A DNA stretch of 36,765 nt from a virus: the IMG/VR virus record IMGVR_UViG_3300027796_000023; one strand, 5' to 3'. Positions within the stretch are counted from its first letter, which is position 1. The number at the start of each line of letters is the position of its first letter. Of this stretch, positions 1,006-30,251 are shown piece by piece. Below the pieces are notes generated by a model. That model saw only the letters and a program-made list of their open reading frames with translations, searched no databases and had not been told where the DNA came from. The translations under genes were made by a program, and so were the position numbers.

Positions 1006-1021
1006 AAAAGGAGAAACGACC

Positions 1022-3776: not shown

Positions 3777-3788
3777 GGAGGGCAAAAA

Positions 3789-4175: not shown

Positions 4176-4180
4176 TTACG

Positions 4181-4205: not shown

Positions 4206-4276
4206 TGGTCCGTCGGCGCAATGGGCGCCGCTCGAGTTATCCTTCTCGGGCGCAGGTTCGATCCCTGGTCGGTCCA
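4206..4276 (+). other. Degenerate tRNA-like cloverleaf (not a canonical tRNA)
   Basis: The acceptor-like stem TGGTCCG/CGGTCCA has one T:T mismatch. The D-like hairpin is GGCGC-aatgg-GCGCC. A 7-8 bp stem (GCTCGAG/CTCGGGC) closes an 8-nt loop (ttatcctt). The T-arm is CAGG-TTCGATC-CCTG. The variable-region and junction spacing are non-canonical. Confidence 0.3.
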
Positions 4277-4302
4277 TAGTTCACTAAAAGGAGAAAAGGA
4301 AC

Positions 4303-4704
4303 ATGAAACAGGTAATCGAAGATGAAGCGGCGACGATCGAGCTCGATCGAATAATCGAGTTCTACGAGGTCGACCCGGAGGGAAAAGACTGGGAGGACAG
4401 CAAAAAACGCCTATTATCCGCGATCATGAAAGGGCGGATCACTCTCGACGAGGAGTCCGGAGTCGTTATCATGGAACTAGTGTCACCGATCAAACTGCAA
4501 AACGACGATATCGTCAAGTCGCTCGAGTTCAGGGAGCCGACAGCGGGAGACCTCAAGGTTCTCGACAAGTACAAGGAATCCGAGTCGATGGCGAAAACGA
4601 TACACCTCGCGAGCAAAATCACCAGTAAATCCATTGCAATAATCGAGAAAATGATCGGGCGCGATTTGTCGACCATGGGGGCGATAACGTCGCTTTTTTT
4701 CTGA
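4303..4704 (+). CDS. Tail assembly chaperone (P2 gpE / lambda gpG analogue, 133 aa)
   Basis: The ORF lies immediately upstream of the tape measure and has a strong SD (aaaggagaaaagg). It ends ...SLFF* on a T7C slippery run. Confidence 0.8.
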   Translation: MKQVIEDEAATIELDRIIEFYEVDPEGKDWEDSKKRLLSAIMKGRITLDEESGVVIMELVSPIKLQNDDIVKSLEFREPTAGDLKVLDKYKESESMAKTIHLASKITSKSIAIIEKMIGRDLSTMGAITSLFF

Positions 4705-4865
4705 TCCTGCCCGCACCGCTCGAGCGGACGCTCTGGGCGGTCGCGAACCGATTCGGGTTCGACGGGCATGAAATGAAGCTCGGACGCCTGGCGTTCTGGT
4801 ATCGCGGACATGAAGCAATATGCAAGGAAGAGGCCGCGGAGGTCGCTCGAGCATCCGGAGGGTAA
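4303..4865 (+). CDS. Tail assembly chaperone, -1 frameshift-extended isoform (about 187 aa; P2 E+E' / lambda gpGT analogue)
   Basis: After the slip at 4695-4701 the -1 frame reads LILPAPLERTLWAVANRFGFDGHEMKLGRLAFWYRGHEAICKEEAAEVARASGG*. The TAA at 4863-4865 lies 3 nt before the tape-measure ATG. Confidence 0.7.
4695..4701 (+). promoter_or_regulatory. -1 programmed ribosomal frameshift slippery heptamer T_TTT_TTC
   Basis: An X_XXY_YYZ heptamer in the zero frame lies directly before the TGA stop. The -1 frame stays open for 54 further codons up to 4865. Confidence 0.75.
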
Positions 4866-4868
4866 TAA

Positions 4869-7681: not shown

Positions 7682-8735
7682 AAAAGAAATCTCCGGACTA
7701 AATGATCCCAACCGCGATATTGTAAAACTACTAATAAACGGGCGCGAGTATACGGGCTGGACTGCGGCGACGATCACCATGGCGATCGATAACTGTTCCG
7801 ACGCGTTCAGTTTAACCGCTCCGTTCGATCCTGGCGATCCGGTCATAATGGCTGCATTTAAGCCTATGGAATATCAGGGAGTAAAACTCTTAATTGGAAA
7901 TGACGTAGTTCTGACGGGAACCGTTGACAAGGTCGATCCAAAAGTCGACGCTGGAAGTAGAACTATAACTGTCCAGGGGCGCAGCTTAACTGGTCCGCTC
8001 GTCGACTGCTCGATTGACGGAAACCTCGAATTTAACGGTTTAACGCTCGCGGATATCGCTCGTACACTCTGCAAGCCGTTCGGGGTCCGCGTTCGATCCG
8101 ACTATAATACAGGAAAGATCGCCGCTGCGAGTGCTAAATTTGGTCAAGGAGCCTACGATTTTTTGTCGAAGGTCGGCGGGCCGCATAATATGTTGTTGAA
8201 CTCGTCGTATACTGGGGAACTAGTTATTACCGACGGGAAGGCGCTCGCGGCGAAAGCTCCGATCGCGACGCTCGTCGAGGGGAAAAAACCGCTTTTGTCG
8301 GTCGCCGCTTCGTTCGATTCGACGGCGCGTTTTTCGGTATACAAGATCAGCGCACAGCAGGACGGATCGGCGAACGTATCGGGGAAAGTAACTGACGCGA
8401 CGATCAAAAAAAACCGACCGCGACTGATCGAGCAGGACGACACGGGAACCGATCCGTCTCTTGCCGCAGCATGGGAACGGTCGAAGGCGTTCGCCGCGTC
8501 TATGTCGGTATCGGCGACCATTGCAGGATGGCGACGACCTGACGGCGCGCGCTGGGCCGAACGCCAGATCGTCACGCTCAAGGCTCCCGGGGCGATGATT
8601 GTACGAGAATCGAGGTGGTTAATCGCCGGAGTAACTCATAAATTGGACTCTGGCGGAGGATGCACGACAGACCTTCGCCTGATATTACCGGAAACGTATG
8701 CGGGAACCGTCCCGAAGGTATTACCGTGGGAATGA
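7674..8735 (+). CDS. Mu gpP (gp44) / P2 gpD-like baseplate hub protein (353 aa)
   Basis: The motif LLINGREYTGWTAATITMAIDNCSDAFSLTAPFDP and the gene's size and order match Mu P-family tail proteins. Confidence 0.7.
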   Translation: MPEKEISGLNDPNRDIVKLLINGREYTGWTAATITMAIDNCSDAFSLTAPFDPGDPVIMAAFKPMEYQGVKLLIGNDVVLTGTVDKVDPKVDAGSRTITVQGRSLTGPLVDCSIDGNLEFNGLTLADIARTLCKPFGVRVRSDYNTGKIAAASAKFGQGAYDFLSKVGGPHNMLLNSSYTGELVITDGKALAAKAPIATLVEGKKPLLSVAASFDSTARFSVYKISAQQDGSANVSGKVTDATIKKNRPRLIEQDDTGTDPSLAAAWERSKAFAASMSVSATIAGWRRPDGARWAERQIVTLKAPGAMIVRESRWLIAGVTHKLDSGGGCTTDLRLILPETYAGTVPKVLPWE

Positions 8736-9253
8736 TCGAGTTAATCGAGGTCGCGAGCGCAGCGATCAAACAGTTTAGAAATGCGCCGGGGGAATCCGTC
8801 GTCGCTAAAGGGACGGGGCTCGGAGGGGCGACGCGCGAGGCTCAAGTTTATCAACAGCACGGACTCCGCTCTCGTCCGGTCAAGGGAACGCGCGGGCTAT
8901 TCGTTGGGCTCGGGTCAGGATCGCGCGAGGGCGTCGTTATCGCGCTCGAGAATTACACGCTCGAAATAACGATCGGCGAGGGCGAAACGGCGATATATTC
9001 GACAGATACCGCCGGATCGGTCAAGGCAACGGCGAAATTTAAGGCCGACGGATCGATCGAATTTAATGGAGATGGTAAACGCCTCGTAACCTGGCAGGAA
9101 TTACAGGACGCGCTATCGGCGCAGGCTAACACGATAAAAACTCATACGCATCCCGACCCGACGAGCGGATCGACTGGGCCGTCGGCGGAGCTTGTGACGC
9201 TTGCCTGCGATATATCGTCCGCGAAAACGTCGACGCTGAAAACTGGCGGTTGA
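8732..9253 (+). CDS. Baseplate assembly protein V / Mu gp45-like spike (173 aa)
   Basis: The internal ATG overlaps the previous stop (ATGA). The pattern QQHGLRSRPVKGTRGLFVGLGSGSREGVVIALEN...GEGETAIYS is gpV/gp45-like. Confidence 0.7.
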   Translation: MIELIEVASAAIKQFRNAPGESVVAKGTGLGGATREAQVYQQHGLRSRPVKGTRGLFVGLGSGSREGVVIALENYTLEITIGEGETAIYSTDTAGSVKATAKFKADGSIEFNGDGKRLVTWQELQDALSAQANTIKTHTHPDPTSGSTGPSAELVTLACDISSAKTSTLKTGG

Positions 9254-9255
9254 CG

Positions 9256-9285
9256 TTGCGCGCGGCGTTAATCTTATGATATAAT
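9256..9285 (+). promoter_or_regulatory. Candidate sigma70-type internal promoter (TTGCGC-18 nt-TGaTATAAT)
   Basis: A perfect TATAAT lies at 9280-9285 with an upstream TG. The 13-mer ATGATATAATACG is shared with the promoter at 32157-32169. Confidence 0.5.
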
Positions 9286-9299
9286 ACGCGGGGGACTTA

Positions 9300-9722
9300 A
9301 TGGAAACCGAAGGCGATCCGAAATTATACGAAACCGGAGCAGGCCCGATTTTATCAATAAACGGCGGACAGCCGGAAATGAACGAAGGCCTCGAAAACGC
9401 CGTATACTTGTCTATTTTTACGGATTCCGGATACTGGGGAAACGTCCTCGCCGACACTCCGGAAAAGTTCTCGAGCAATTTCGGCGAGATATACCGCAGG
9501 ACGTTGAATAATCAAACTAGGATCGACGCCGAAAAATACGCCTCCGCCTCCCTTGCGTGGATCGTTTCCTCGGGGATCGCGAAGTCGGTCGCCGTTTCCG
9601 CATCGATCCCGGGCATCGGGATTCTCGGGTTAATCGTTATTATTGAACAGCCGAACAAAACCGTGACGTTAAAATATCAAATAAATTGGTCCACCATGGC
9701 CGTAAGGGTAGGGGCAGCATGA
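9300..9722 (+). CDS. Mu gp46-like baseplate protein (140 aa)
   Basis: The motif GDPKLYETGAGPILSINGGQPEMNEGLENAVYLSIFTD is GP46-family-like. The gene lies between the V-like and J-like genes. Confidence 0.65.
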   Translation: METEGDPKLYETGAGPILSINGGQPEMNEGLENAVYLSIFTDSGYWGNVLADTPEKFSSNFGEIYRRTLNNQTRIDAEKYASASLAWIVSSGIAKSVAVSASIPGIGILGLIVIIEQPNKTVTLKYQINWSTMAVRVGAA

Positions 9723-10807
9723 TAACGATTCCAAAAGTGGCAGATAATCGCGACCAGATAATCGCGGACATAGAAGGGAAAATCGGCCAGACTATACCAT
9801 CCTTACCGAAAGCATTTTTTCGCGTTATCGCGACCGCATACGCCGGAGCGATCGCGCTTTTATATCGTTTCGGCGTATGGGTATACGACCAGATACTTCC
9901 GCAAACTGCGGACGCCGAGGCGCTCGAGCGTATCGGGAGTCAGTACGGAGTTTATCGCGGAGCACCGGTCTCCGCTAAACTGACGGCGACCGCAACGGGA
10001 ACAAACAGTTCCGCGATAGCCGCCGGGACGCTCTGGCAAAAAAACGGGATCGTATACGAACAGGAAGTTCTCGCCGAAATTACCGCCGGGGTCGTGACGA
10101 TCACCGTCGAGGCGCTAACACCTGGGTCCGATTCGAATATTGAAAACGGCGAAAAGATCAGCCTAGTATCTCCGATCGCTGGTATCGATTCGGACGCGAC
10201 GATAGCGTCAACTATAATCCATGGCGAGGACGAGGAAACGATCGAGTCCTATCGATCAGAAATAATGGACAGACTGGCGAACCGTCCGCAGGGAGGAGCC
10301 GCTCCTGACTATATCTCTTGGGCGCTCGAGGTTCCGGGGATCGCGAAGGCGTTCGCGTTCCGAACAGCTCCCGGGACCGTGACAGTTTATCCGCTAATCG
10401 CGACGACCGGAACGCGATTACCTGACGCGCCGAAAATTGCCGAGGTTCTCGCATATGTTCAAGATACACACCGGAGGCCGCTCTGCGCTGACGTCGCGGT
10501 CGCTGCGCTGACGGAGCGCGTCGTTAATATCACCGTGACGAGCGTCACGCCGTCGAGTCTCGATTCTTGGGAAGCGATTGCCGCAGCATGGACGGCGCAT
10601 TTATTCAAACGCTATCCTGCGCAATATGACGATGAAGCAAACAAAACTGATTTTATCAGCAAATCGGCCATGTATGGCGAAGCGGCCGGAGCTGGCGCGA
10701 CAATTATAGAATTCGAAATGTATCTCGACGCATCGCCTACGCCGTTCGATTATCACGATTTGACGACGTCAGAAATTTGCAAATTAGGGGTCGTTACATG
10801 GCCATAA
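9719..10807 (+). CDS. Baseplate J-like protein (Mu gp47 / P2 gpJ, 362 aa)
   Basis: The start is coupled to the previous stop by ATGA. The size and gene order fit; the ORF-track start at 9686 lacks an SD. Confidence 0.7.
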   Translation: MITIPKVADNRDQIIADIEGKIGQTIPSLPKAFFRVIATAYAGAIALLYRFGVWVYDQILPQTADAEALERIGSQYGVYRGAPVSAKLTATATGTNSSAIAAGTLWQKNGIVYEQEVLAEITAGVVTITVEALTPGSDSNIENGEKISLVSPIAGIDSDATIASTIIHGEDEETIESYRSEIMDRLANRPQGGAAPDYISWALEVPGIAKAFAFRTAPGTVTVYPLIATTGTRLPDAPKIAEVLAYVQDTHRRPLCADVAVAALTERVVNITVTSVTPSSLDSWEAIAAAWTAHLFKRYPAQYDDEANKTDFISKSAMYGEAAGAGATIIEFEMYLDASPTPFDYHDLTTSEICKLGVVTWP

Positions 10808-11343
10808 TGGAAAAAACGCTCCGGCGTTTATTACCGAACGGACAGGCTTGGCGATTGACCGGAAACGTCGGCGAACTGATCGACGCGTTCGGGCTGTCGC
10901 TCGAGCGCGCGCGCGAATTCTTGGAAAACGTGCAGAACGAAGCGATCCCTGGGCGCGCGACGTACCTTCTCGAGGCATGGCATGAAACTCTAGGTCTGGC
11001 GTTCGATAATACATTAACGCCACACGATCAGCGTATGCGCGTAAATTCCGCGTATACGTCGACCGGAGGATCGTCGCTCGATTATGTTGTCGCGCAGGTA
11101 AAAAAAGAATTCCCTCGCGTTATGATACGGGAGCCCGCATCTCCCGGGATGGCCTATTCCGTTACCGGCGACGTCAATACGACGCGTGAACTCGTAAGAC
11201 TCCGAGGGCTTATAGTTCGTCTAGTATTGCTACACTTGACGCCTAATTATACAATAAGAATATTGGAGACGCTCGATTCCGCGTATACGGGCGCCTGCAT
11301 TACTGGGAAAGCACGTTGCGGACGAACCATATCGTCGTTATAA
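10798..11343 (+). CDS. Mu gp48 / P2 gpI-like tail protein (DUF2313-type, 181 aa)
   Basis: The N-terminus LRRLLPNGQAWRL is the hallmark of this family. The ATG at 10798 lies 8 nt after AGGGG; 10807 is an alternative start. Confidence 0.7.
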   Translation: MAIMEKTLRRLLPNGQAWRLTGNVGELIDAFGLSLERAREFLENVQNEAIPGRATYLLEAWHETLGLAFDNTLTPHDQRMRVNSAYTSTGGSSLDYVVAQVKKEFPRVMIREPASPGMAYSVTGDVNTTRELVRLRGLIVRLVLLHLTPNYTIRILETLDSAYTGACITGKARCGRTISSL

Positions 11344-11355
11344 AAGGGGTAAAAA

Positions 11356-12912
11356 ATGGATAGGACAAACGCATCCGGAAGCATCGACGGAGCATACGTC
11401 GACGATGATCCTGTAAATGAAATAACCGGAACGCTCCTCGTCGCTCATGATCGGAACGCAATTCAAGAGGAATTACTTGCCGTCATAGAGGCCGCGGGAA
11501 TTACTCCGAATGGAAATAATTGGGCGCAGATACTAGCCGCGCTCCGATCAAGCGCCGCGAACCTGGTCGACGCTAACAAACTGAACGGACAGCTCGCCGA
11601 ATTTTATCGCGACGCCGGGAATTTGAACGCTGGCACCGTACCAGAGGCGCGACTCCCGCTCGCAGCGATCGCGGCCGCGATAAACTATACCGCCGCCGAC
11701 GTACTCTTAAAACTATTGACCGTAGACGGCGCTGAATCGGGACTCGTTTCGGAAGATTCGACGAAACTAGGAGGAGTCGCCGCCGCGAATTTTATACACG
11801 GAAACGAGAACGGGGCAATTTTAGCAAATAGTGGATCGTTTTCATCTAATGCTACAAGGTCAGGATTTTATATATTTAACGGAATAACCGTTTCAGACTT
11901 GCCGGACGCAGAATTTTATTCCGGATATATAACAAAATATGATAATAATACCGGAAACGCGGAGATTGTAGCAACATCGGGGAAAAAATATGCGCGAAGT
12001 TTAGGCGGAGGAGTTTGGTCCTCATGGATTCTTATCTCCGACAATGGAGTCGCGCCTAATTCCGCAGATTCTAAGATGCTAAATTCTGCGGCGAAGGCTT
12101 TTAAGTTCCAATTATATAACGCAGGAAATACTTTATTAAAAAGAATTTGTATTTTGCCGAATGGAACAAATAGCACCGATTCGGCAAGAATAAACCTTTC
12201 ATTACACGACTGGACTTTTATGTACGGAACGGGTGAATTTGTATTTAAAAACAGAAATGGATTTAAATACATCGCGCATCATGATGGCTCTGTTTCTGTC
12301 AGTACTTGTGGTATTGCTTGCTATAATCGTTCAGACGGAGGAATTGACGTTTGCATATATGCACACGCCGGACAATTTATTGAAGCCTCCGTTTTGGTCG
12401 ACGGCGAAGATATTATTTTTTCGAATGGGGAGGACTTTGTTCCGTCTGGTAGTTTGTGCTTTGACTCTGCGGACACAACGACATATCCAATAAATAGAAA
12501 AACATGGAACTCGAATTCGCATCCGACGACGCTCACCGGATATGGCATAACCGACGCGCTAAAAGATTCGGTAATCGTTACGGGAACCGCACGAACGATT
12601 TATAATCAAGGTATCGTTTCATATACGCGACGAGAATTTATATCGTTCGTTCGTGGTTCGCTCAAGCTCGATTTCGTTCATGATAATTTAGCTGGTTTAA
12701 TAACTGTCACCTCGGCCGGTAAAACTGTATATCAATACAATCATCCCGACAATACCGCTATAAATATAACCGTCGACGTACCGGTTTATCATTCGCAGCC
12801 GGTTGTTTTGACCTGTTCCGCTGGAAATATAACGCGGTTTATGGTAAAAGACGATGGAACCTGTTCCGGTGCGTTATACGACGAGACGGTCGCTTTTCTG
12901 AATCTTGGTTAA
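11356..12912 (+). CDS. Tail fibre protein (518 aa), compositionally mosaic
   Basis: The gene follows the baseplate genes and carries the tail-fibre motif TLTGYGITDA (about 12520-12552). The N-terminal third is GC-rich and the middle (about 11815-12530) is AT-rich. Confidence 0.8.
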   Translation: MDRTNASGSIDGAYVDDDPVNEITGTLLVAHDRNAIQEELLAVIEAAGITPNGNNWAQILAALRSSAANLVDANKLNGQLAEFYRDAGNLNAGTVPEARLPLAAIAAAINYTAADVLLKLLTVDGAESGLVSEDSTKLGGVAAANFIHGNENGAILANSGSFSSNATRSGFYIFNGITVSDLPDAEFYSGYITKYDNNTGNAEIVATSGKKYARSLGGGVWSSWILISDNGVAPNSADSKMLNSAAKAFKFQLYNAGNTLLKRICILPNGTNSTDSARINLSLHDWTFMYGTGEFVFKNRNGFKYIAHHDGSVSVSTCGIACYNRSDGGIDVCIYAHAGQFIEASVLVDGEDIIFSNGEDFVPSGSLCFDSADTTTYPINRKTWNSNSHPTTLTGYGITDALKDSVIVTGTARTIYNQGIVSYTRREFISFVRGSLKLDFVHDNLAGLITVTSAGKTVYQYNHPDNTAINITVDVPVYHSQPVVLTCSAGNITRFMVKDDGTCSGALYDETVAFLNLG

Positions 12913-12928
12913 TGGCGGGAGTTATATA

Positions 12929-13225
12929 ATGAAATTCGGAATAATTATGTCGGCGATTTTACTCGCGATGATCGTCGCGCTTTACTTGGTCAATAAGTCG
13001 CGCGAGCGACAAAAGGAACGCGCCGACGAAGCCGAAGCGCGCGCGAAAACCGAACGCGCTGAACTCGCAAAACGCGAAAAATTCAACGCACAAATGGAGA
13101 CGATCGAAAATGAACGACAAGCGAAAACCGGGAAAGTTACTACTGGCCGTGCTCTTACTGATTTCGACAATTCTCTTGACGTCCTGTCAGATATTGCCGG
13201 AACCAAAAGTCGAGTATCGAAATAG
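12929..13225 (+). CDS. i-spanin (Rz-like, 98 aa)
   Basis: It has an N-terminal TM helix (FGIIMSAILLAMIVALYLV) followed by a charged coiled-coil (RERQKERADEAEARAKTERAELAKREK). The SD GGGAG lies 8 nt upstream. Confidence 0.7.
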   Translation: MKFGIIMSAILLAMIVALYLVNKSRERQKERADEAEARAKTERAELAKREKFNAQMETIENERQAKTGKVTTGRALTDFDNSLDVLSDIAGTKSRVSK

Positions 13226-13403
13226 ACCGATCCCTGTCGTCGCATGGCCGACGTTTCCTGATCCGTCCGGTATCGTCACTCGAACCGATGACGGGTCCGT
13301 CGTTATGCCGACGGAATATTGGCTCGCCTTGACGCGCTATATTATCGACGTAGAATTCGGAATCGAAAAAATCGAGACCTACCGGAAAACTGATAATGAG
13401 TAA
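13110..13403 (+). CDS. o-spanin (Rz1-like outer-membrane lipoprotein, 97 aa), overlapped architecture
   Basis: The signal peptide has a lipobox (LLLISTILLTS-C) and the mature part is Pro-rich. The gene starts inside the i-spanin gene in another frame and extends beyond it. Confidence 0.7.
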   Translation: MNDKRKPGKLLLAVLLLISTILLTSCQILPEPKVEYRNRPIPVVAWPTFPDPSGIVTRTDDGSVVMPTEYWLALTRYIIDVEFGIEKIETYRKTDNE

Positions 13404-14016
13404 CGAATTTCGTGAGTATAATCGCGCGCTGACGTCGCTCGTCAATAATGGAATCCCGCGCGCCGTCGCTGAAACCTTGACGACGGTCGGAGGCTGGGCG
13501 CACTATGCGACAGCGAAAAACGTCCGTCAACGGTTCACGCTCCGAAATCAATACACGGAGCGAAGCCTGCGATTCTATAAGGCGAGCCCGAAAACACAGC
13601 TTTCAAAAATAAACGCCGTCACGGGATCAATAAGTCCATATATGGAAGCGCAGGACGCCGGAGGCGAACGTCTCCCGAAGCAGGGCTCGCGCGCTCCTGT
13701 CGCTACTATCGCGGCGCGCGGAGGAAACCCTTCGAAGGTCATACGAAAAAAATACTATGCCGGAACTATGTCGCCAGATATGTTCGTTGGCCGGCCAGGA
13801 CGCGGAGGCGATCAGCCGTTTGGCGTTTGGGAGCGATATCGACAAGGAAAAACGACGCGGGTCCGCATGATCCGCAGCCTCGAGAATACCAGCGTCGAGA
13901 TCAAGGCGACGCGCTGGCACCGCGACGGAGTGACACCATATGCGCGCGAGAACGTATTCGCCGAAGAATACGCGCGCGTAGCATCCCGAATTCTGCAAGA
14001 ATTCGGCGCTAAATAA
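13396..14016 (+). CDS. Hypothetical protein, last gene of the late operon (206 aa; possible virion morphogenesis protein)
   Basis: A long ORF whose start overlaps the o-spanin stop. No motif is firm enough for a specific call. Confidence 0.6.
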   Translation: MSNEFREYNRALTSLVNNGIPRAVAETLTTVGGWAHYATAKNVRQRFTLRNQYTERSLRFYKASPKTQLSKINAVTGSISPYMEAQDAGGERLPKQGSRAPVATIAARGGNPSKVIRKKYYAGTMSPDMFVGRPGRGGDQPFGVWERYRQGKTTRVRMIRSLENTSVEIKATRWHRDGVTPYARENVFAEEYARVASRILQEFGAK

Positions 14017-14055
14017 AAAAAAGATCATTTACACTAAAAAAACACTGTAAAAAGA

Positions 14056-14085
14056 TTGACGCATGGTGTAAAAGGGTGCTAATAT
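14056..14085 (+). promoter_or_regulatory. Candidate early promoter (TTGACG-18 nt-TGcTAATAT)
   Basis: The -35 is at 14056-14061 and the extended -10 at 14077-14085, in a 91-bp AT-rich gap. It is flanked by the TTTACAC/GTGTAAA inverted repeat (14028-14034 and 14066-14072). Confidence 0.6.
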
Positions 14086-14107
14086 AACCGCATCGACAGG
14101 GGGTTAT

Positions 14108-14302
14108 ATGCCGAAAAAATTAACTAAATGGTCAATAAGCTGGCCGACTTCTTTACACGAACGGGCAACGAGGATCGCCGAGGCGAATCGCCGCAGTCTA
14201 AACGCGCAGGTTCTTTACTGGCTCGAGAATGGCGGAATTCCCGCCGACCTTCTCGACGAGTCGCGGGCCGATATTGCCGAGGGAATGGAGTCAAAAAAAT
14301 GA
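14108..14302 (+). CDS. Arc/MetJ-type ribbon-helix-helix DNA-binding protein (64 aa)
   Basis: KWSISWPTSLHERATRIAEANRRSLNAQVLYWLENG fits a beta-strand/helix/helix RHH pattern. It is the first gene after the early promoter. Confidence 0.65.
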   Translation: MPKKLTKWSISWPTSLHERATRIAEANRRSLNAQVLYWLENGGIPADLLDESRADIAEGMESKK

Positions 14303-18825: not shown

Positions 18826-18877
18826 GAGGCGTACTAATGACATATTTTAGTTTATGTTCTGGAATCGAGGCGGCGCG

Positions 18878-20437
18878 ATGATAGTTCTGCGAAACTACCA
18901 ACGCGCGATCCTGAACGATCCCGCGATCGTCGACATACTTTACTGGCTCGAGGGTAAACGGCCGGAACCAACAAAAAAACGGCCGGTCGTCGTATCACCT
19001 ACCGGTTCGGGAAAAACTGCCATGTTCTGCGCAATAGCAGAATATTGCAAGGCGCGACGACTCCGCGTCCTGATCCTGGTACACCGACAGGAAATACTTG
19101 AACAAACGCTCCGCGCCATGCAAAAAATCGGCGTTACCTGCGGGCAAATTCGCGCGGGAAAGCCGATGACAAGCGATTTAATACAAGTCTGCATGGTCGG
19201 GACGCTCGTCCGCAGGCTCGACCGCGTCGCTCGTCCTGATATAATTATCACCGACGAATGTCATCATACGCCGTCGCCGACATACCGACGAATTCGCGAA
19301 TACTGGTCGTCGGTCCCGGCTCCTGGATTTACGGCGACGCCGTCGAGACTCGACGGCGAAGGACTCGGGAAAGATTACGATTCGATTATACTCGGGCCGT
19401 CAGTCTCCGAACTAGTCCGCGATGGATGGCTCGCCGTTCCGGTTCTTTACAGGCCGCCGGAGGAAGTAACAGCACAATTTCATGTAACGCGCGGAGACTT
19501 TGATTCGAAGGAACAGCAAACCGTTATGTCAGGACGGAAAATCGTCGGAGACGTCATCGCGCACTATCGGAAACACCTCGACGGACAGCCCGTAATCGTT
19601 TCATGCGTATCCGTTGAACACGCTAAAATGATGGCGGGAGTATTCTCCGGAGCAGGATATACCGCGCGGGCCGTATGGGGAGACATGAAAACGGAGGATC
19701 GCGAGTCGGCGCTCGGAGGGCTCGGAGACGGATCAGTCCAGGTAGTCACGTTCGCGGACCTTATCGGGGAGGGAGTCGATATCCCGGCCGTCTCCGGGGT
19801 TATAATGCTGCGCCGAACGCTTTCGCTTTCGCTTTATTTACAAATTGTCGGCCGCGCTCTCCGGCCTATTTACGCCGAAGATATGCCGCTCGAAACAGCA
19901 GAACAGCGTCGCGCCGCGCAACTTGCTGGACCGAAGCCACGCGCTATCATTCTGGACCATGCCGGAAATTATCAATTACACGGGCACGTTCTGGCAGATA
20001 GAGAATGGACGCTCGACGCTAAAAAACGAGCAGGAAAAAACCAGCCGGCTCCGACGACGACAAGCTGTCCGCGCTGCTATGGAATTTGGCCCGGGAAGCC
20101 GCGCGAGTGTCCCGCCTGCGGGTGGTCGTTTGTCAAGGCCGAGGCCGCAAAAAAAGCCGCTGACATTAAGGTAATCGAGGGCGAGCTCGTCGAAGCGGGG
20201 ATCGCGGAGGCTGACGCCGAATCGACTGCGCAGTTTATCTCCGCGGCGCTCAAGGCAAATCCAAAAAACCGACAAAAAATACTTCTCGGCCGCGCGTTCG
20301 CGCTCGCGGTCGATGGCGAACATGGAAAGAATACGCTCGGCGCGCTCGCGAAGGCGGTCGGATATTCCGACCAGTGGACGCGCTGGGCTTGGGACTATGT
20401 CAAGGCGAAGCATCCGGCCGAGGCCGGATCGAGATAA
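18878..20437 (+). CDS. SF2 DEAH-box helicase with C-terminal zinc ribbon (519 aa)
   Basis: Walker A is SPTGSGKT and the DEAH box is ITDECHH. The zinc ribbon is CPRCYG...CPACGW. The ATG at 18878 has GAGG upstream; the ORF-track start at 18854 has no SD. Confidence 0.8.
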   Translation: MIVLRNYQRAILNDPAIVDILYWLEGKRPEPTKKRPVVVSPTGSGKTAMFCAIAEYCKARRLRVLILVHRQEILEQTLRAMQKIGVTCGQIRAGKPMTSDLIQVCMVGTLVRRLDRVARPDIIITDECHHTPSPTYRRIREYWSSVPAPGFTATPSRLDGEGLGKDYDSIILGPSVSELVRDGWLAVPVLYRPPEEVTAQFHVTRGDFDSKEQQTVMSGRKIVGDVIAHYRKHLDGQPVIVSCVSVEHAKMMAGVFSGAGYTARAVWGDMKTEDRESALGGLGDGSVQVVTFADLIGEGVDIPAVSGVIMLRRTLSLSLYLQIVGRALRPIYAEDMPLETAEQRRAAQLAGPKPRAIILDHAGNYQLHGHVLADREWTLDAKKRAGKNQPAPTTTSCPRCYGIWPGKPRECPACGWSFVKAEAAKKAADIKVIEGELVEAGIAEADAESTAQFISAALKANPKNRQKILLGRAFALAVDGEHGKNTLGALAKAVGYSDQWTRWAWDYVKAKHPAEAGSR

Positions 20438-24815: not shown

Positions 24816-25060
24816 ATATGTTTTTTCTTGGGTTTATTTTGGGAATTGTTTCTTTCGGGATCGCGGGAATATTTTGCAGCTTGCCGAAAATAGGCCGACG
24901 CGATGCTCCGCAACTATGGGACGTCGTCGCGCTGGTACAATCCGACGGGAAATGGAACGTCGTAAAATGGTTGGGCGATAAAGGCGAACCAGGTCGGCGC
25001 GTCGTTCTCATGCGTCGCGAATCCGTTTCAGCCATAATCGAGGAAACGAAACCATGCTGA
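24812..25060 (+). CDS. Small membrane protein (82 aa)
   Basis: The N-terminal TM helix is FFLGFILGIVSFGIAGIFCSL. Confidence 0.55.
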   Translation: MNMFFLGFILGIVSFGIAGIFCSLPKIGRRDAPQLWDVVALVQSDGKWNVVKWLGDKGEPGRRVVLMRRESVSAIIEETKPC

Positions 25061-25659
25061 TAACGCTCCCGCGCGCTCTCGATCCTGACGCCTATTATTC
25101 ACAAACGAACAACGTCGTCGAGACAATCCTCGCGAAATGCAAGGCAGACCGGAAACTCGAAACCTGCGGTCCGACAGCCGCTACGATCATCGTCGACGCG
25201 CTCGGGAAGCTCCTCCCGATCGTCGCTCCTGGCGGGTGGAAACCACAGCCGGAGGACGTACTCGCCGCATGGTTTAATGATCCGCGAAATTATGACGCCA
25301 TGCGGCGCGCTCGCGACGGGATCGATCCGGCGTCGATTATGGGGAACGAGGTGCCGCAATGGTATCCGCCTGCGCTGGCGGCCGTTTTCGGGGTCCGCTC
25401 GACGTTCGCCTGGGGATTTTCGTTCGACCTGGTCCGCGAGGAGATAGAACGAGGGCTCGGAGTCCTCGCGACGATAAAGAATCCGGGACATTATATCGCG
25501 ATTGTCGGTGTCGACATTGATCGCCGGGAACTATTGTACCATGATCCATGGCCGGGCGATCCATGGCCGGGACGATATAAAGGATTTGGCGGGCAATGCC
25601 GTAGACTTTACGAGCTCGAGCTCGTAAATATACAGCCGTACCGGGTCGAAATAGGATAA
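25054..25659 (+). CDS. Putative papain-like cysteine peptidase (C39-like fold, 201 aa)
   Basis: The candidate Cys is in ETCGPTAATIIVDA and the candidate His in NPGHYIAIVGVD, followed by YHDPW. It is the last backbone-composition gene before the island. Confidence 0.45.
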   Translation: MLITLPRALDPDAYYSQTNNVVETILAKCKADRKLETCGPTAATIIVDALGKLLPIVAPGGWKPQPEDVLAAWFNDPRNYDAMRRARDGIDPASIMGNEVPQWYPPALAAVFGVRSTFAWGFSFDLVREEIERGLGVLATIKNPGHYIAIVGVDIDRRELLYHDPWPGDPWPGRYKGFGGQCRRLYELELVNIQPYRVEIG

Positions 25660-25670
25660 TAGGGGTTTAT

Positions 25671-25721
25671 ACTGAACATTGCATAATGGATTTATGCTGT
25701 TCAGTCTAATTTATGTTAGGC
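25671..25721 (+). repeat. Hairpin plus GTTAGGC core-site-like heptamer at the left edge of the low-GC island
   Basis: ACTGAACA (25671-25678) pairs with TGTTCAGT (25698-25705). An inner GCATAA/TTATGC stem and a TT bulge are present. GTTAGGC (GTTRRRY) lies at 25715-25721. Confidence 0.4.
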
Positions 25722-25751
25722 CGACGCCTTCGGCGCCAATAAGGAGAAAAA

Positions 25752-27941
25752 ATGAATATCGATGATAGAAGCCATTTAATAATTCCAATTGAAAGTATAA
25801 AAAAACAGGAATATGAGAAATCTGGTTTTGGTGAAGTTTTTAATAGACAAAATATTCCTGAACATAGTCAGAAGCTGAAAAGAAATTTTTCTGCTATTAC
25901 TTCTCGATTACAGCAAAGTAAAGATTTTGAATATATTGACACCTTAACAGTTTCAATTGTTACTCCTAAAGAATGGGATGCAAAAAAAGAAAAGGGACAT
26001 CTCAATGACCTTGGATTCACAATACTGGATTATAGTCGGAAATATCCAAATATCGTGACCGTCTCCATTCCTAAAAACAAATGGCCTGAAGTAGAAAAGA
26101 AAATTAGTCTATATGCAGAAAAAGGTGGGGTCGGAAAAACAAACTTACAGGCAATCAATGGCTTTATTCCTCGATTAGCAAGTGATTCACTTAATATTAC
26201 TACAGATGAAAGTGATAAATTAATAGATGTGAATATTACTTTTTTTAGTATACTTACTAAAAAAGAAGTAATAAATATAAGTGAACACTTGATTACTGAA
26301 CTTAAAAAAAATAATAGGTCTGTTAAGGTTATCCAATTATCAGATGATGATGTTATTGTTTCTTGTTCAGCATCGATTAATGAATTAAAAGGTATTGTAA
26401 AAGACTATATATCTGTAAAATCAATTGTGAATGATGATATTGTATTTATTGAGAAAGCATCAATCCGGACTAATTCTCATAAAACTGTTTTGGTTTCGAG
26501 GCCATTAACAAATCAAATCATTGCTGTCATTGATGATGGTATTTCTCCGCGTGAGGATTTAGCACCTCTAGTTACAGAGCGATTGTCTCCACAGGTTGCA
26601 AATGCAGTTACTGTTCCAGCAATACATGGAACGTATGTTGCAAGTAGATGCGTATTCGGAGATCTAGACCTTGATTCATTAGGTTCTGAAGTCGAACCTT
26701 GCTGTTGGCTTGATGATATTCCCGTTTTCGGTATAGATAGTTCAGGTAATAAATTAAGTCCAAGAGAATCAGATTTAATAAATGCAATTGATGCTTTTGT
26801 GAGCAAAAACTATAAAACAGTTAAGATTTACAATTTATCATTAGGATTTGGCGCCCCACTGATTTATCAAAAGTTTTCAGAGACCGCAAAGCGTTTGGAC
26901 CTGTTAAGTAAAAAATATGACGTTTTATTTGTTATTGCATCTGGAAATAATAATTCTTTATTAGGCCTCTTCCCTGAAGATCATTTCAAAAATCCATATG
27001 CAAGCATATCATCACCTTCTGAATCATTAACTTGTTTATCTGTTGGCTCAATTGCAAAAAAAGAATCAGCAATTTCAATGTCAAAGTATAATGAAATATC
27101 TCCTTTCTCAAAAATCGGACCTGGACTATTCGGTAGTATTAAACCAGATCTTGTTGCGCATGGCGGGAATCTAGTAAATGGATATAAACCTGATGCTGAT
27201 ATCTCAACGTGTGGATTTTCTGTAGCTAATGGATTAATTGAAAATGATATTGGTACGAGCTTTTCGGCCCCAATCGTCTCAAATATTGCTGCTCAATTAT
27301 TTGACTACTATCCAATGTATGGATCAAACATGATACGGGCATTGCTTATCCATGGTGCAGAGGAACGCATTTTTCCACAAAAACTGAATATTGAATCTCA
27401 TCTAGGTTGTGGCTATGGTGAACCAGATTTGCAAAAATGTTTGCAAAGCGATAACTTTTCTTGTGTGTTTCTAACTGAAGGAGAGCTGGATACTAGTAAT
27501 TATGATCTTGTGCCATTTTATATTCCTAAAATACTTGCAGATGGAAAACAGTCACTACGTATAAAAATAACAATAACGTTTAATCCAGAAGTAAATAAAA
27601 ATAATGATGAAGAGTATTCATGTTCAAGAATATCAAGTAACTTACAACGGCTTAAAGATAATTGTCTTACAAAAAAAAATCCTGAAGAAATAAATCTATC
27701 AGCACCATATAGCACAGTGATTAGGTATAGTTGCTCAATGAAACGCAATATTGAGCCCGGAGAATGGGCAGTAAAATTACGTTTATACTCACGTAATGTT
27801 GATCAAGCAATCTATAAACAGAAATATGCTTTGGTTATTGAGATACGCGATGAACTTAGTAAAATAGATTTGCGAGAACAAGTTATCAACGAAACAGGTG
27901 AAATGTATATCAAAAAGCTGAAAGAAAGAAAAATGGCCTAA
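25752..27941 (+). CDS. Subtilisin-like (S8) serine peptidase with unknown about 250-aa N-terminal and about 170-aa C-terminal regions; no signal peptide (729 aa)
   Basis: The catalytic triad is in D-H-S order: IAVIDDGIS (about 26520), HGTYVAS (about 26625) and GTSFSAPIV (about 27255). The SD is AAGGAG. GC is very low. Confidence 0.85.
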   Translation: MNIDDRSHLIIPIESIKKQEYEKSGFGEVFNRQNIPEHSQKLKRNFSAITSRLQQSKDFEYIDTLTVSIVTPKEWDAKKEKGHLNDLGFTILDYSRKYPNIVTVSIPKNKWPEVEKKISLYAEKGGVGKTNLQAINGFIPRLASDSLNITTDESDKLIDVNITFFSILTKKEVINISEHLITELKKNNRSVKVIQLSDDDVIVSCSASINELKGIVKDYISVKSIVNDDIVFIEKASIRTNSHKTVLVSRPLTNQIIAVIDDGISPREDLAPLVTERLSPQVANAVTVPAIHGTYVASRCVFGDLDLDSLGSEVEPCCWLDDIPVFGIDSSGNKLSPRESDLINAIDAFVSKNYKTVKIYNLSLGFGAPLIYQKFSETAKRLDLLSKKYDVLFVIASGNNNSLLGLFPEDHFKNPYASISSPSESLTCLSVGSIAKKESAISMSKYNEISPFSKIGPGLFGSIKPDLVAHGGNLVNGYKPDADISTCGFSVANGLIENDIGTSFSAPIVSNIAAQLFDYYPMYGSNMIRALLIHGAEERIFPQKLNIESHLGCGYGEPDLQKCLQSDNFSCVFLTEGELDTSNYDLVPFYIPKILADGKQSLRIKITITFNPEVNKNNDEEYSCSRISSNLQRLKDNCLTKKNPEEINLSAPYSTVIRYSCSMKRNIEPGEWAVKLRLYSRNVDQAIYKQKYALVIEIRDELSKIDLREQVINETGEMYIKKLKERKMA

Positions 27942-28048
27942 CAACTGCTTCAACCTGACTCGGCTATGTCACGATTCTTGCTAGTCGTCGCTACGCTCCT
28001 CGGCAAGAATCGCGCCATTACGCCTCGCAGGTTAAGCAAATGTTATAC
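27936..28048 (+). repeat. attC-like site 1 (113 bp)
   Basis: R''-like GCCTAAC contains the protease TAA, and R'-like GTTATAC lies at 28042-28048. The arms pair TGCTT[C]AACCTG[A]C with GCAGGTTAAGCA. The central stem is CGATTCTTGC/GCAAGAATCG. Confidence 0.5.
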
Positions 28049-28059
28049 GGACGGCAAAA

Positions 28060-28077
28060 GGCATAACAAGTTATGCC
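28060..28077. repeat. 18-bp perfect palindrome GGCATAACAAGTTATGCC
   Basis: It lies 12 nt after attC-like site 1 and 22 nt before the next ORF. A near-identical copy is at 28433-28450. Confidence 0.8.
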
Positions 28078-28099
28078 TACAAGCCGCAAAGGAGAAAAG

Positions 28100-28366
28100 A
28101 TGAATATATTCGAGTTTGCGGACATTATCGATAAAAGCATTGTTATTACTCGGTACGCAAATCAAGACGGACGATTCTCTGCATCGTTTGATTACTGCGA
28201 AACAAAACAAGGTGCATGCCTTTGCGGCGAATATGGAAACGGAAAAACTCCGCAAGAAGCATTAAACAACTATAAAAACAAGATAATCGGGAAGACTCTT
28301 GTTTTTAATGCAATGAGCGATGATTATCGGCAAGAATACGTCGCTCCGAAAATGGAAGACGTATAA
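28100..28366 (+). CDS. Cassette ORF 2, hypothetical (88 aa)
   Basis: The SD AAGGAG lies 6 nt upstream. Translation begins MNIFEFADIIDKSIVITRYANQDGRF. The ORF-track start at 28073 lies inside the palindrome. Confidence 0.55.
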   Translation: MNIFEFADIIDKSIVITRYANQDGRFSASFDYCETKQGACLCGEYGNGKTPQEALNNYKNKIIGKTLVFNAMSDDYRQEYVAPKMEDV

Positions 28367-28420
28367 CAACGAGTTCGACCTGACAACTTAGTAAAGTTGC
28401 AGGTCAACTCAATGTTGGAT
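28361..28420 (+). repeat. attC-like site 2 (60 bp)
   Basis: GTATAAC contains the ORF stop. The arms pair GAGTT[C]GACCTG[A]CAACTT, loop agta, AAGTTGCAGGTCAACTC. R' is GTTGGAT, a perfect GTTRRRY, at 28414-28420. Confidence 0.55.
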
Positions 28421-28432
28421 GGATTCTTTAGC

Positions 28433-28450
28433 GGTATAACAAGTTATACC
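28433..28450. repeat. 18-bp perfect palindrome GGTATAACAAGTTATACC
   Basis: It lies 12 nt after attC-like site 2 and 27 nt before the next ORF. 16 of 18 nt match 28060-28077. Confidence 0.8.
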
Positions 28451-28477
28451 GACACGAACTAAACCGGAGGAAGTAAT

Positions 28478-28633
28478 ATGCGAAAGAAGCCTATTGATGC
28501 CAATGAATACGATTTCGATATGTTTGAAAATTGGTTAGATGAAAACGGCGTTGGAGAACTGTTTGACGATTGGTCGCAATGGTGGGAATGTTGGAAAACC
28601 GCCTATCATTGGGGACAAGAAAATGGCATCTAA
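28478..28633 (+). CDS. Cassette ORF 3, hypothetical acidic Trp-rich peptide (51 aa)
   Basis: The SD is GGAGG. Translation is MRKKPIDANEYDFDMFENWLDENGVGELFDDWSQWWECWKTAYHWGQENGI. Confidence 0.45.
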   Translation: MRKKPIDANEYDFDMFENWLDENGVGELFDDWSQWWECWKTAYHWGQENGI

Positions 28634-28660
28634 CAACTGATTCCACCTGACTCAATGCAG
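28628..28660 (+). repeat. Truncated attC-like half-site (R''/L'' arm only)
   Basis: ATCTAAC is a perfect RYYYAAC and contains the ORF stop. It is followed by AACTGATTCCACCTGACTC, so TAACAACTGATTCCACCTGACTC matches attC-like site 1 at 21 of 23 nt. No complementary 3' arm was found downstream. Confidence 0.45.
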
Positions 28661-28686
28661 AAGGCCGTCGTTTATGCGACGTCCTT
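28661..28686. terminator. Hairpin between the island and the minus-strand regulator (possible bidirectional terminator)
   Basis: AAGGCCGTCG / CGACGTCCTT forms a 10-bp stem with one mismatch and a 6-nt loop. No clear U-run follows on either strand. Confidence 0.3.
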
Positions 28687-28690
28687 TCTA

Positions 28691-28900
28691 TTAAAAAAAC
28701 TGTTCTACTTTCTCAATAAGTCCGTCGCGCGCGAGTTTTTCTCGGACCGCCTCGCGGATATACTCGCACCGATTACACGGAATAATATCTTTCCATGTAT
28801 CCGGAACACGAATCGGAATAACGTACTTTTTTCCATAAACCGTTGGTCGGCCTGCTCCCTTACGCACTCCGCCATGATCGGATAATCGTTTTTTTTCCAT
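28691..28900 (-). CDS. Ribbon-helix-helix (CopG/MetJ-like) regulator, the only minus-strand gene (69 aa)
   Basis: The N-terminus carries GGVRKGAGRP. The RHH-like part is KKYVIPIRVPDTWKDII...CEYIREAVREKLARDG. The gene is divergent from the operator-rich region. Confidence 0.6.
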   Translation of the reverse strand: MEKKRLSDHGGVRKGAGRPTVYGKKYVIPIRVPDTWKDIIPCNRCEYIREAVREKLARDGLIEKVEQFF

Positions 28901-28992
28901 GTTTCATACCTATTTTGTCGGGAGCTGATCCCAACATTCCCGGATTATTCTTGAAATAAACATACACCAACCATGTAACATAATCAATTAGT

Positions 28993-29086
28993 TTATACAA
29001 CAATCAAGTTTTGCAAAACCGACAAACTTGATTTATGTTATACAACAATCAAGTGGTAGTTTTTATGAAACTTGATTATTGTATAA
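28993..29086. promoter_or_regulatory. Operator array: four copies of a 17-bp site TTATACAACAATCAAGT in alternating orientation
   Basis: The + copies at 28993-29009 and 29038-29054 are identical. The - copies are at 29026-29042 (diverged outside the AATCAAGT half) and 29070-29086 (1 mismatch). They form two large palindromes. Confidence 0.6.
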
Positions 29087-29110
29087 AAAGAATATCACTG
29101 ATAGCTATTC

Positions 29111-29416
29111 TGTTGCGCTGGAAAAATATGCGCAACAACAGCGCAACAGAACACGACACACGAACACGAATAGCTAATTCCTTATTATATATATATTTCT
29201 TTTAAATAATATATATAAAAAAGTAGGCCTGTTGCGCTGTTGCGCTTGTTGCGCAGAATTCAGTCCTCACGCGGAGTAAAAAAAATTGATTGCAATATAA
29301 TAATCAAACTATGTATATGGTGAAAGTAAGCGCAACAAGCGCAACAGCGTTACATCGTTATCCTGTAAGGAATTAGGGTGCAACAGTAGCGCAACAAGGC
29401 GCAACAAGGCGCAACA
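29111..29416. repeat. Iteron field: 11 perfect + 1 degenerate GCGCAACA 8-mers in oriented clusters around an AT-rich palindrome
   Basis: The - copies start at 29111, 29230, 29238 and 29247. The + copies start at 29130, 29141, 29330, 29339, (29378), 29389, 29399 and 29409. The AT-only palindromic stretch is 29181-29222. An ATAGCTATTC/GAATAGCTA inverted repeat lies at 29101 and 29168. Confidence 0.85.
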
Positions 29417-29576: not shown

Positions 29577-30251
29577 ATGATTGTAAACCTCACGACCTTC
29601 GCTGACCTGGCCGGAGTCGGAAAGCCTTGCGTAACTTTGTCAGTACAACGGGGAAAGCTCGTCACGAACTCCGCCGGGTTTATTGACACGACCGATCCGA
29701 TAAACTCCGCATACCTGCAAAAGCGAAAAAATAAGCTCGAGGGCAAAAAAACACCAAATGATAAAAAAGCGCCGGAGCAGCGAATGGCGACGAAGGACAA
29801 GCCGTGCAAAACGAAACCGTTAAAAAAGACAGCGACTCCGAAACCTGCAAAAAAGGCGACGACGAAGCTCGAGCACCTGGACGGCGTCGAAATGTCGATA
29901 CCGGACACAGACCTCGACGATGACGGAGAAAAGATCGACGAACCGCTCGATCAGCTCGACAAGCTCGCGGCCGACGTCCGCTTGAAAAATGCGCAGGCTA
30001 AACGGCACGAATTGAAATTCGAACAGGATAAAGGAAACGTCGTCAAGGTCGAGATAGTCGAGCGCATGGCGTCGAAAATAAACAACGAAATAAAAACGAG
30101 ACTGCAAGACTTACCGCGGCGAGTTACTCCGCGGATTATGGCCATGGCTCGATCAGTGTCCGATGATAAAGAAGTACAGCTTGCGCTCGAGCGTGAAATA
30201 GACGACAGCCTCGAGGCGATATCCGTCGCGCTGGGGGCTTCTCTTGTCTGA
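29577..30251 (+). CDS. terS: Terminase small subunit, lambda Nu1-like (224 aa)
   Basis: The N-terminal wHTH (MIVNLTTFADLAGVGKPCVTLSVQRGKL) is comparable to Nu1 (MEVNKKQLADIFGASIRTIQNW). The C-terminus is NAQAKRHELKFEQDKGNVVKVEIVERMASKI. It is followed by a gpA-type TerL. Confidence 0.75.
   Translation: MIVNLTTFADLAGVGKPCVTLSVQRGKLVTNSAGFIDTTDPINSAYLQKRKNKLEGKKTPNDKKAPEQRMATKDKPCKTKPLKKTATPKPAKKATTKLEHLDGVEMSIPDTDLDDDGEKIDEPLDQLDKLAADVRLKNAQAKRHELKFEQDKGNVVKVEIVERMASKINNEIKTRLQDLPRRVTPRIMAMARSVSDDKEVQLALEREIDDSLEAISVALGASLV

Follow-up and report, generated by a model that had tools for sequence, protein, structure and literature searches.

We identified a gene for an IetS-like S8 serine protease in IMGVR_UViG_3300027796_000023, a stretch of 36,765 nucleotides of viral DNA that was analyzed in full and is called the window below. 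The gene is the only open reading frame (ORF) of an apparent integron cassette, and the ATPase IetA, which is encoded immediately 5' of IetS in paired systems, is absent. We are highly confident both that the protein belongs to the IetS family of proteases and that the anatomy of the cassette is as described here. The window represents the near-complete genome (~37 kb) of a tailed phage. It encodes structural proteins (Mu-like gpT capsid, baseplate J/gp44-48, tape measure), replication and recombination proteins (superfamily 2 (SF2) helicase, YqaJ exonuclease, RecT, SSB), and packaging and head proteins (Nu1-like and gpA terminase, lambda-type portal, and an adjoining ClpP-type head protease). 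The annotation of the window revealed no lysogeny module.

The protease ORF is co-oriented with the phage early operon, stands at the end of that operon, and has its own ribosome-binding site, with an AAGGAG box 5 nt 5' of the ATG. The gene unit forms a sharp low-GC island, with a GC content of 0.34 versus 0.54 for the phage backbone. A scan for sigma-70 promoters around the cassette gave matches no more numerous than in shuffled sequences, and no cassette-internal promoter can be claimed. The features of the region are collected in Table 1.

Table 1. Features in and around the cassette array. Positions are those of the window, and a slash within a site marks the crossover point.
Feature	Position	Strand	Description
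C39-like papain-fold peptidase gene	25054-25659		Pfam E=3e-7; end of early operon, immediately 5' of the cassette site
Hairpin	25667-25710	+	Directly 3' of the C39-like stop, just 5' of the cassette boundary; bottom-strand fold -12.4 kcal/mol, z=-5.6
GTTAGGC core site (GTTRRRY)	25715-25721	+	Crossover G/TT; left end of cassette 1
Cassette 1	25716-28042	+	2,327 bp, GC 0.34; 5' hairpin, ribosome-binding site, IetS-like ORF (sole ORF), attC1
IetS-like S8 serine protease, solo (IetA-less) clade	25752-27941	+	729 aa, ATG start
N-terminal region, prodomain-like (aa 1-232)	25752-26447	+	Strand and long helix, then two βαββα(β) modules (aa 64-123, 158-232); pLDDT mostly >85
Linker (aa 233-253)	26448-26510	+	Low confidence, pLDDT 61-65; joins prodomain-like module to catalytic domain
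S8 catalytic domain (aa 254-555)	26511-27416	+	From Pfam and invariant residues
C-terminal β-sandwich (aa 570-700)	27459-27851	+	Followed by two helices (aa 707-728); AlphaFold2 model
attC1	27936-28048	+	113 nt; R'' GCCTAAC ... R' G/TTATAC
Cassette 2	28043-28414	+	372 bp; ORF of 88-97 aa, unknown function (28073 or 28100 to 28366), and attC2
attC2	28361-28420	+	60 nt; R'' GTATAAC ... R' G/TTGGAT
Cassette 3, truncated	28415-28653	+	51-aa ORF (28478-28633) and half attC (R''-L'' arm only, 28628-28653)
Small 69-aa protein gene	28691-28900	-	Backbone; right bound of the array; homologues at the same locus in related phage L015

Sequence and predicted fold of the protease

The Pfam family Peptidase_S8 (PF00082) matches aa 254-552 of the protein (E=1.1e-31, 110.7 bits against a gathering cut-off of 21.8). 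The catalytic set consists of D261 (26532-26534, in IAVIDDG), H292 (26625-26627, in HGTYVAS), the oxyanion-hole asparagine N361 (26832-26834) and S503 (27258-27260, in GTSFSAP), so that the D-H-S triad and the oxyanion Asn occur in the order that defines the S8 family. All four residues are invariant in an alignment of 56 sequences of the clade described below. The flanks also contain invariant residues in this alignment, namely R32, H38 and Y121 on the N-terminal side and W672, R681 and D700 on the C-terminal side.

Resemblance to IetS extends well beyond the catalytic domain. The best-scoring of the PADLOC models for IetS (PDLC02197) covers aa 104-714 (E=3.2e-79), and the NCBIfam model NF042956 (IteS_antiphage) covers aa 127-669 with 209.3 bits, which is far below its equivalog cut-off of 900. 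The protein also matches phrog_3964, a phage family of unknown function (E=5e-83). A BLASTP comparison with a gut-phage IetS that has a verified IetA partner aligns aa 1-715 end-to-end at 25% identity (E=6e-41). Many members of the clade have a precomputed match to PF27160 (Y4kK_N); we take Y4kK and Y4kL to be the IetS/IetA pair of the Rhizobium plasmid pNGR234a. Judged by these matches, both flanks are the standard N- and C-terminal regions of IetS and not orphan sequence.

An AlphaFold2 model computed from the clade alignment has a pLDDT (predicted local distance difference test) of 89.4 and a pTM (predicted template modelling score) of 0.91. The top matches of this model in a Foldseek search of the PDB are unprocessed pro-subtilases, ProN-Tk-SP (571 columns, E=1.7e-26) and pro-subtilisin E, followed by PCSK9 and Kex2/furin, and the C-terminal sandwich is covered in the long alignments to Tk-SP, kexin/furin and PCSK9. 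The Pfam I9 propeptide family has no match in the protease, and the clade profile, when searched against PDB sequences, matched S8 domains only and nothing in the flanks. A hydropathy check found neither a signal peptide nor a transmembrane segment: the highest Kyte-Doolittle average over 19 residues is 0.97, and the N-terminus is charged. The predicted layout is therefore a prodomain-like module, an S8 core and a P-domain-like sandwich without a secretion signal. Tk-SP of Thermococcus kodakarensis (PDB 3afg), pro-subtilisin E, kexin/furin and PCSK9 are the closest solved folds and share this order of modules. However, these proteins are secreted, have signal peptides and are only 12-20% identical, whereas the phage protein lacks a secretion signal and has one more module at its N-terminus.

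A first-pass annotation of this DNA, made from the sequence without database searches, had described a cytoplasmic subtilase with intact triad motifs, no signal peptide, and about 250 aa before and 170 aa after the catalytic domain. All three motifs are indeed present with invariant residues, the hydropathy profile agrees with a cytoplasmic protein, and the Pfam boundaries leave about 250 aa on the N-terminal side and about 177 aa on the C-terminal side. The same annotation saw no recognizable motif in either flank, a view that the IetS, IteS and Y4kK_N models and the end-to-end IetS alignment overturn. It also held the propeptide architecture of extracellular subtilisins to speak against its reading of the protein as an effector. 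One part of that architecture, a prodomain-like fold, is present in the model, but the secretion signal is absent.

The integron cassette array

The array (25715-28653) sits between the early replication and recombination genes and the regulatory and packaging region of the phage. The GTTAGGC core site at its left end is the exact reverse complement of the R'' box GCCTAAC in the attC site of cassette 1 itself, and the start of cassette 2 (G/TTATAC) is likewise the exact reverse complement of its own R'' box GTATAAC. The stop codon of the protease lies inside the R'' box of attC1. The sequence TAACAACNNNTTCNACCTGAC ends each of three consecutive units (three copies, where 0.05 are expected), and an imperfect inverted partner ending in GTT is present in the first two.

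A covariance model trained only on attC sites outside the window recognizes exactly two full attC sites within it. The first, attC1, scores 89.6 bits on the + strand (E=1.4e-18) versus 36.7 bits on the - strand, and its bottom strand folds with z=-4.2 and bulged bases. The match of attC2 (48 bits, E=1.1e-8) shows the same strand preference and is partly circular because an identical site from Tetrasphaera phage TJE1 is in the training set; the bottom strand of attC2 folds with z=-6.0 and has an extrahelical T and G. The repeat that ends cassette 3 was rejected as a full attC because it has no 3' arm and the covariance model is silent there, and we regard it as a half-site. We also considered the hairpin 3' of the C39-like gene as a full attC and rejected it, as the covariance model does not recognize it; it may be a terminator of the backbone or a degenerate attC remnant.

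Neither the ORF of cassette 2 nor that of cassette 3 has a Pfam or PHROG match. No integron or phage integrase was found: Phage_integrase does not occur among the 25 of 31 Pfam families listed for the window, and every ORF of 300-450 aa is otherwise assigned. Since no integrase was found, the array is classed as a CALIN (cluster of attC sites lacking an integron integrase) and not as a complete integron. At the level of sequence, the first two units have the properties that define integron cassettes, a 3' attC with imperfect inverted repeats and a start complementary to their own R'' box. The protease gene thus appears to have reached the phage as a mobile integron cassette, a mechanism that does not figure in the first-pass annotation.

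Small 5' hairpins are conserved just past the G/TTRRRY site in cassettes of this attC family (25722-25738, 28060-28077 and 28433-28450 in the window; also in L004, L007 and TJE1). The hairpin CGACGCCTTCGGCGCC occurs in cassette 1 and in several cassettes of two related arrays, L004 and L007, described below. Cassettes 2 and 3 have the palindrome GGCATAACAAGTTATGCC / GGTATAACAAGTTATACC.

A clade of IetS-like proteases without IetA

In IetAS, the gene for IetA lies immediately 5' of that for IetS and often overlaps it. In an E. coli phage, a gut phage and a Dongshaea plasmid, PADLOC identifies IetA in this position (E=1e-105 to 1e-143). None of the 42 other ORFs of the window matched IetA in a PADLOC scan. 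A tblastn search with three verified IetA proteins located IetA immediately upstream of IetS in every viral contig long enough on that side (24 of 24). The same search was negative for the window and for seven further loci that carry relatives of the protease: L004 (54% identical), L007 (46% identical), and the copies from Flavobacterium (L008), Flagellimonas (L011), Paludibacter (L012/L013) and Empedobacter (L014).

The solo proteins form a single clade nested among the paired IetS proteins in a neighbour-joining tree, which is rough and has no support values. The nearest outgroup that was checked, P0108, has an overlapping AAA gene, and P0105, a basal member of the solo clade, has none. The clade comprises about 100 clusters, mostly from Bacteroidota, with proteins of roughly 734 aa. 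Identity of the phage protease to paired IetS is 25-30%. From these sequence comparisons, the solo clade most likely derives from an IetS branch that lost its ATPase partner. Because the phage protease fails the two-gene criterion and the NCBIfam threshold, we place it outside IetAS proper, as an IetA-less variant.

Defence-related genes recur around members of the solo clade. Among the neighbours are a type I restriction-modification system, FRG, UvrD/PD-(D/E)XK, a DRT UG24-like protein and a resolvase, and also a type II restriction endonuclease with two methylases and a PD-T4-6-like kinase. The neighbour of the S8 cassette differs from array to array, being a PD-T4-6-like kinase in L004, a type II restriction endonuclease in L007 and a small ORF in the window. 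This variation argues that the protease works alone or with core host factors.

Occurrence of the cassette type

Phage TJE1 (L001, HQ225832) is the sole nucleotide match among 50,697 phage records, and the match lies at the boundaries of cassette 2. TJE1 has a three-cassette array of the same attC family, and its positions 1016-1075 are identical to attC2 up to G/TT. This array is a published example of a phage CALIN, and IntI1 recombines two of its attC sites in vivo, not necessarily including the one identical to attC2 (PMC9892861). The 5' leader (~60 nt) and the attC of cassette 2 are ~98% identical to those of the TJE1 methylase cassette (28043-28420 compared with 284-1075 of TJE1). The ORFs of these two cassettes are unrelated, one of 88-97 aa and unknown function and the other a 242-aa methylase, so that the same ends enclose different cargo.

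A 54%-identical protease flanked by the same attC family is found in a bacterial-type array of ~32% GC on L004 (JGI 3300027419 Ga0209340_1001570, 1-14190). The L004 cassettes are mostly defence-like and encode TerB_N, a 756-aa DUF87 ATPase, DUF5677, DUF1232 and the IetS-like S8 protein. Further cassettes of this array encode a 701-aa PD-T4-6/mad6-like Ser/Thr kinase with a 215-aa partner, and NA37 with a 425-aa partner. A 46%-identical protease followed by an attC homologous to attC1 is found on L007 (Logan SRR21120502_1868). This contig has ~55% GC and matches to tail and head-tail adaptor PHROGs around its low-GC island, and it therefore represents a second phage-like carrier. The island (5600-12500) contains the IetS-like cassette, a 664-aa type II restriction endonuclease (PADLOC E=3e-150) and, encoded on the other strand, two DNA methyltransferases; positions 12396-12514 hold a further attC of this family. 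Around the protease copies of Flavobacterium and Empedobacter, the flanking site is a different one, of the GCCTAAC...GTTAGGC type.

The 20-mer attC core TAACAACTGCTTCAACCTGA was found in more than 120 stretches of species-representative genomes, among which Treponemataceae, Treponema and other Spirochaete metagenome-assembled genomes dominate. Dozens of copies are present in the Treponemataceae chromosome OY762953.2. Judging by these sequence matches, the attC family of the array is of Spirochaete type; chromosomal integrons of Treponema are well known (PMC3607928). The same core also occurs on short contigs (in a scan of L024-L103) whose bins belong to many unrelated phyla, archaea and Saccharibacteria among them, a spread that reflects either mis-binned cassette arrays or a wide cassette pool.

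A related phage, L015 (IMGVR_UViG_3300020814_000171), has a terminase that is 77% identical and a C39-like gene that is 68% identical to those in the window. At the same locus (4800-5870) it has attC-like sites in reverse orientation with minus-strand genes, although the covariance matches are weak (E=0.085 and 0.52). Because attC-like sites are present there in L015 as well, the locus looks like a recurrent hot spot for cassettes.

The surrounding phage genome

Homologues of the terminase come from one Sedimentisphaerales and one Spirochaetaceae metagenome-assembled genome and otherwise from metagenomic contigs, which leaves the host ambiguous. A search for related loci with the small terminase returned no matches. 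All seven recorded contigs with an identical backbone C39-like gene also have an identical protease, and these contigs represent two sources or more. L002 and L003, independent assemblies of the same phage, both end inside attC1, a few dozen bases past the protease stop. Such ends could arise if assembly broke at a repeated attC or if the downstream cassettes vary within the population. Every related phage that was examined retains the C39-like gene as the last of its early operon, at 42-68% identity.

PADLOC matches in the window to other defence systems (mREase_IV, PbeA, DpdF, REase_I and PsyrT) were rejected, since all correspond to one SF2 helicase (18854-20437) and reflect generic similarity. 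In the tail module, an ORF of 518 aa (11356-12912) has a GC content of 0.45, clearly below that of its neighbours, and only a weak flagellin-like match. It is probably a separately acquired mosaic tail-fibre or receptor-binding gene.

To the right of the array, a terminator-like hairpin (28666-28681) belonging to the reverse-strand gene for a 69-aa protein abuts the half attC. The 69-aa protein has no Pfam or PHROG matches, and the position of its gene suggests a regulator. The sequence TTATACAACAATCAAGT occurs in two direct copies and in inverted copies 5' of this gene (28988-29093), and the copies look like an operator for the small regulator. Twelve copies of GCGCAACA / TGTTGCGC in both orientations occupy an AT-rich region (29111-29416) just 5' of the Nu1-like small terminase gene (29577-30251). 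The corresponding place in L015 is taken by another iteron, AACCATAAA, and the small terminases of the two phages share only 49% identity. The iterons could be a recognition site for packaging (pac/cos) or for a replication origin that co-varies with its binding protein.

Possible function of the protease

IetAS entered the literature as a plasmid toxin-antitoxin pair in which the protease IetS is the toxin and the ATPase IetA the antitoxin (PMC13069673). The protease activity is needed for defence, and the anti-phage mechanism is unknown (PMC13069673). The system shows abortive-infection behaviour and is triggered by a phage protein (bioRxiv 10.1101/2022.08.27.505566). Taken as a whole, the explanation that we judge somewhat probable is that the phage gene encodes an autonomous, self-inhibited IetS-like effector, carried on a cassette and serving in defence or exclusion. 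For the defence or exclusion role itself, which is drawn by analogy with IetAS, we put the chances a little short of even, and the zymogen step, which derives from the structural model, is more tentative still.

Under this explanation, the integrase of a host integron would have inserted the cassette through attC recombination. Transcription in the phage would occur by read-through from the co-oriented early operon, and translation would start from the cassette's own ribosome-binding site. The protein would be made as a self-inhibited zymogen in which the prodomain-like N-terminal modules replace the restraint exerted by IetA. A phage-derived cue would then free the protease, as in IetAS, and the freed enzyme would cleave essential cellular or viral proteins and abort the infection. 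In bacterial arrays this activity would constitute a single-gene anti-phage defence, and on a phage it may serve to exclude competing phages.

Several points weigh against this explanation. The role of the solo-clade members is drawn from IetAS, and their association with defence islands is circumstantial. With no detectable integrase or lysogeny module in the phage, it is not obvious which lysogen a defence gene would protect, a point in favour of exclusion during co-infection, of counter-defence or of a passenger cassette. The score of 209 bits against a cut-off of 900 means that the function may have diverged. The zymogen idea derives from the resemblance of a predicted fold, and because paired IetS proteins share the N-terminal region, this region alone does not explain independence from IetA. 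Finally, the tree is unsupported at its nodes, and the score of attC2 is in part circular.

It is possible, though in our view unlikely, that the protein is instead a counter-defence or host-takeover protease that degrades immune or other proteins of the host in early infection. The gene stands at the end of a co-oriented early operon, and since no lysogeny module was detected, the protease would be expressed in lytic infection. Known phage CALINs are enriched in anti-restriction methylases, including that of the TJE1 cassette with the same boundaries, and the protease cassette is fixed in every one of the seven contigs of this phage genotype. However, the only documented role of the family is that of a toxic effector in a host defence system, and nothing in the protein points to specificity for an immune protein. 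Moreover, most members of the clade are chromosomal, in Bacteroidota contexts resembling defence islands or in bacterial cassette arrays, and not in phages.

An equally unlikely explanation is that the gene is a passenger, neutral or slightly costly cargo for which the phage is merely a vehicle. Phages have been proposed as vectors of cassettes (Qi et al., PMC9892861). The unameliorated GC content of the island points to a recent acquisition, the ORFs of the adjoining cassettes are tiny and without assigned function, and the last attC of the array is truncated. The different orientation and content of the sites in L015 at the same locus suggest turnover of content, albeit from weak model matches. 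However, the ORF is intact and retains all catalytic and clade-invariant residues, and the protease is present in every recorded copy of the backbone, from no fewer than two sources. An insert of 2.3 kb is a substantial load for a genome of this size, and constitutively toxic cargo would be selected against. In addition, the S8 cassette of the second phage-like contig, L007, has diverged independently.

That the protein belongs to a canonical IetAS whose IetA is encoded elsewhere, in the host or beyond the window, is very improbable. IetAS is common on phages and prophages, as the 24 viral contigs with both genes illustrate, and the window may be a few bases short of the genome (36,765 nt versus 36,771 for the longest contig). 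However, the window is essentially the whole genome, the expected position of IetA upstream of the protease is occupied by the cassette boundary, and seven further loci of the clade lack IetA as well. Since the cassette moves as a unit, the protease would not rely on a linked partner. Least credible of all is a secreted or extracellular subtilisin or a virion maturation protease: a prodomain, S8 core and β-sandwich are typical of Tk-SP and kexins, but the protein has no signal peptide or hydrophobic segment, is homologous end-to-end to the intracellular IetS, lies in DNA of foreign GC content with attC flanks, and occurs in a phage with a ClpP-type head protease already next to its portal gene.

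Relationship to known systems

The phage protease shares with IetAS (also termed Gao_Iet, IteA/IteS and Y4kL/Y4kK) the full length of the protease, the catalytic residues, a cytoplasmic location, and an association with mobile elements and defence genes. It differs in that the IetA antitoxin, immediately upstream in IetAS, is absent, and in that the gene is a single-ORF integron cassette. A different non-canonical configuration of IetS is known in ietHAS (Liu-DS4, NAR 2026, PMC13069673), which gained an SNF2 helicase and keeps IetA, whereas here IetA appears to have been lost and the protease is without a partner. Phage CALINs of the TJE1 type (Qi et al. 2023, PMC9892861) have the same co-oriented cassettes without intI and the same attC family. 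However, their cargo consists mainly of orphan methyltransferases and ORFs of unknown function, and a cassette encoding a protease of a defence family is not reported among them. Defence cassettes described in mobile integrons (bioRxiv 10.1101/2024.07.02.601719) and in the 'biobanks' of chromosomal integrons (PMC12614218) are likewise compact, promoterless defence genes. These two papers mention no protease or Iet-type cassette, and the array studied here is on a phage and has attC sites of Spirochaete type, as opposed to those of Vibrio or class 1 integrons. Thus, phage CALINs and integron defence cassettes have already been published, and in the literature searched we found no report of the solo IetS clade or of a protease or Iet-type cassette.

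The first-pass annotation had considered plausible a new single-gene module for abortive infection or exclusion, or alternatively a counter-defence protease, carried as foreign cargo next to the regulatory region of the phage. The foreign origin is borne out by the contrast in GC content within a near-complete tailed-phage genome, and its single-gene nature by the lack of an IetA-type ATPase anywhere in the window. A link to conflict systems also holds, given the documented role of the IetS family and the occurrence of relatives among restriction-modification, PD-T4-6-like kinase and DRT-like genes. The PADLOC analysis recommended there does return IetS but no IetA, and hence no complete IetAS. 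The module is not wholly new and is instead an IetA-less variant of a known system. The regulatory region exists, as an AT-rich stretch with operator-like inverted repeats and iterons at 28.9-29.5 kb, but the gene adjoins it only loosely: the region lies about 1 kb downstream, beyond two cassettes and a reverse-strand gene.

Defence-finding tools that demand both IetA and IetS miss the solo clade, which offers a minimal system for asking how IetS is silenced, how it is switched on and what it cleaves. As a more speculative proposal, which we consider doubtful in its full extent, IetA-less IetS proteins may be autonomous single-protein immune sensors and effectors whose own prodomain-like modules replace the ATPase antitoxin. 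They would circulate as cassettes among the integrons of Spirochaetes and Bacteroidota and would have been captured repeatedly by phages, through host integrases, and turned on rival phages. The presence of an IetS cassette in a phage links integrons as stores of defence genes with phages that carry attC arrays, and it points to phages having access to the cassette pool that their hosts use.

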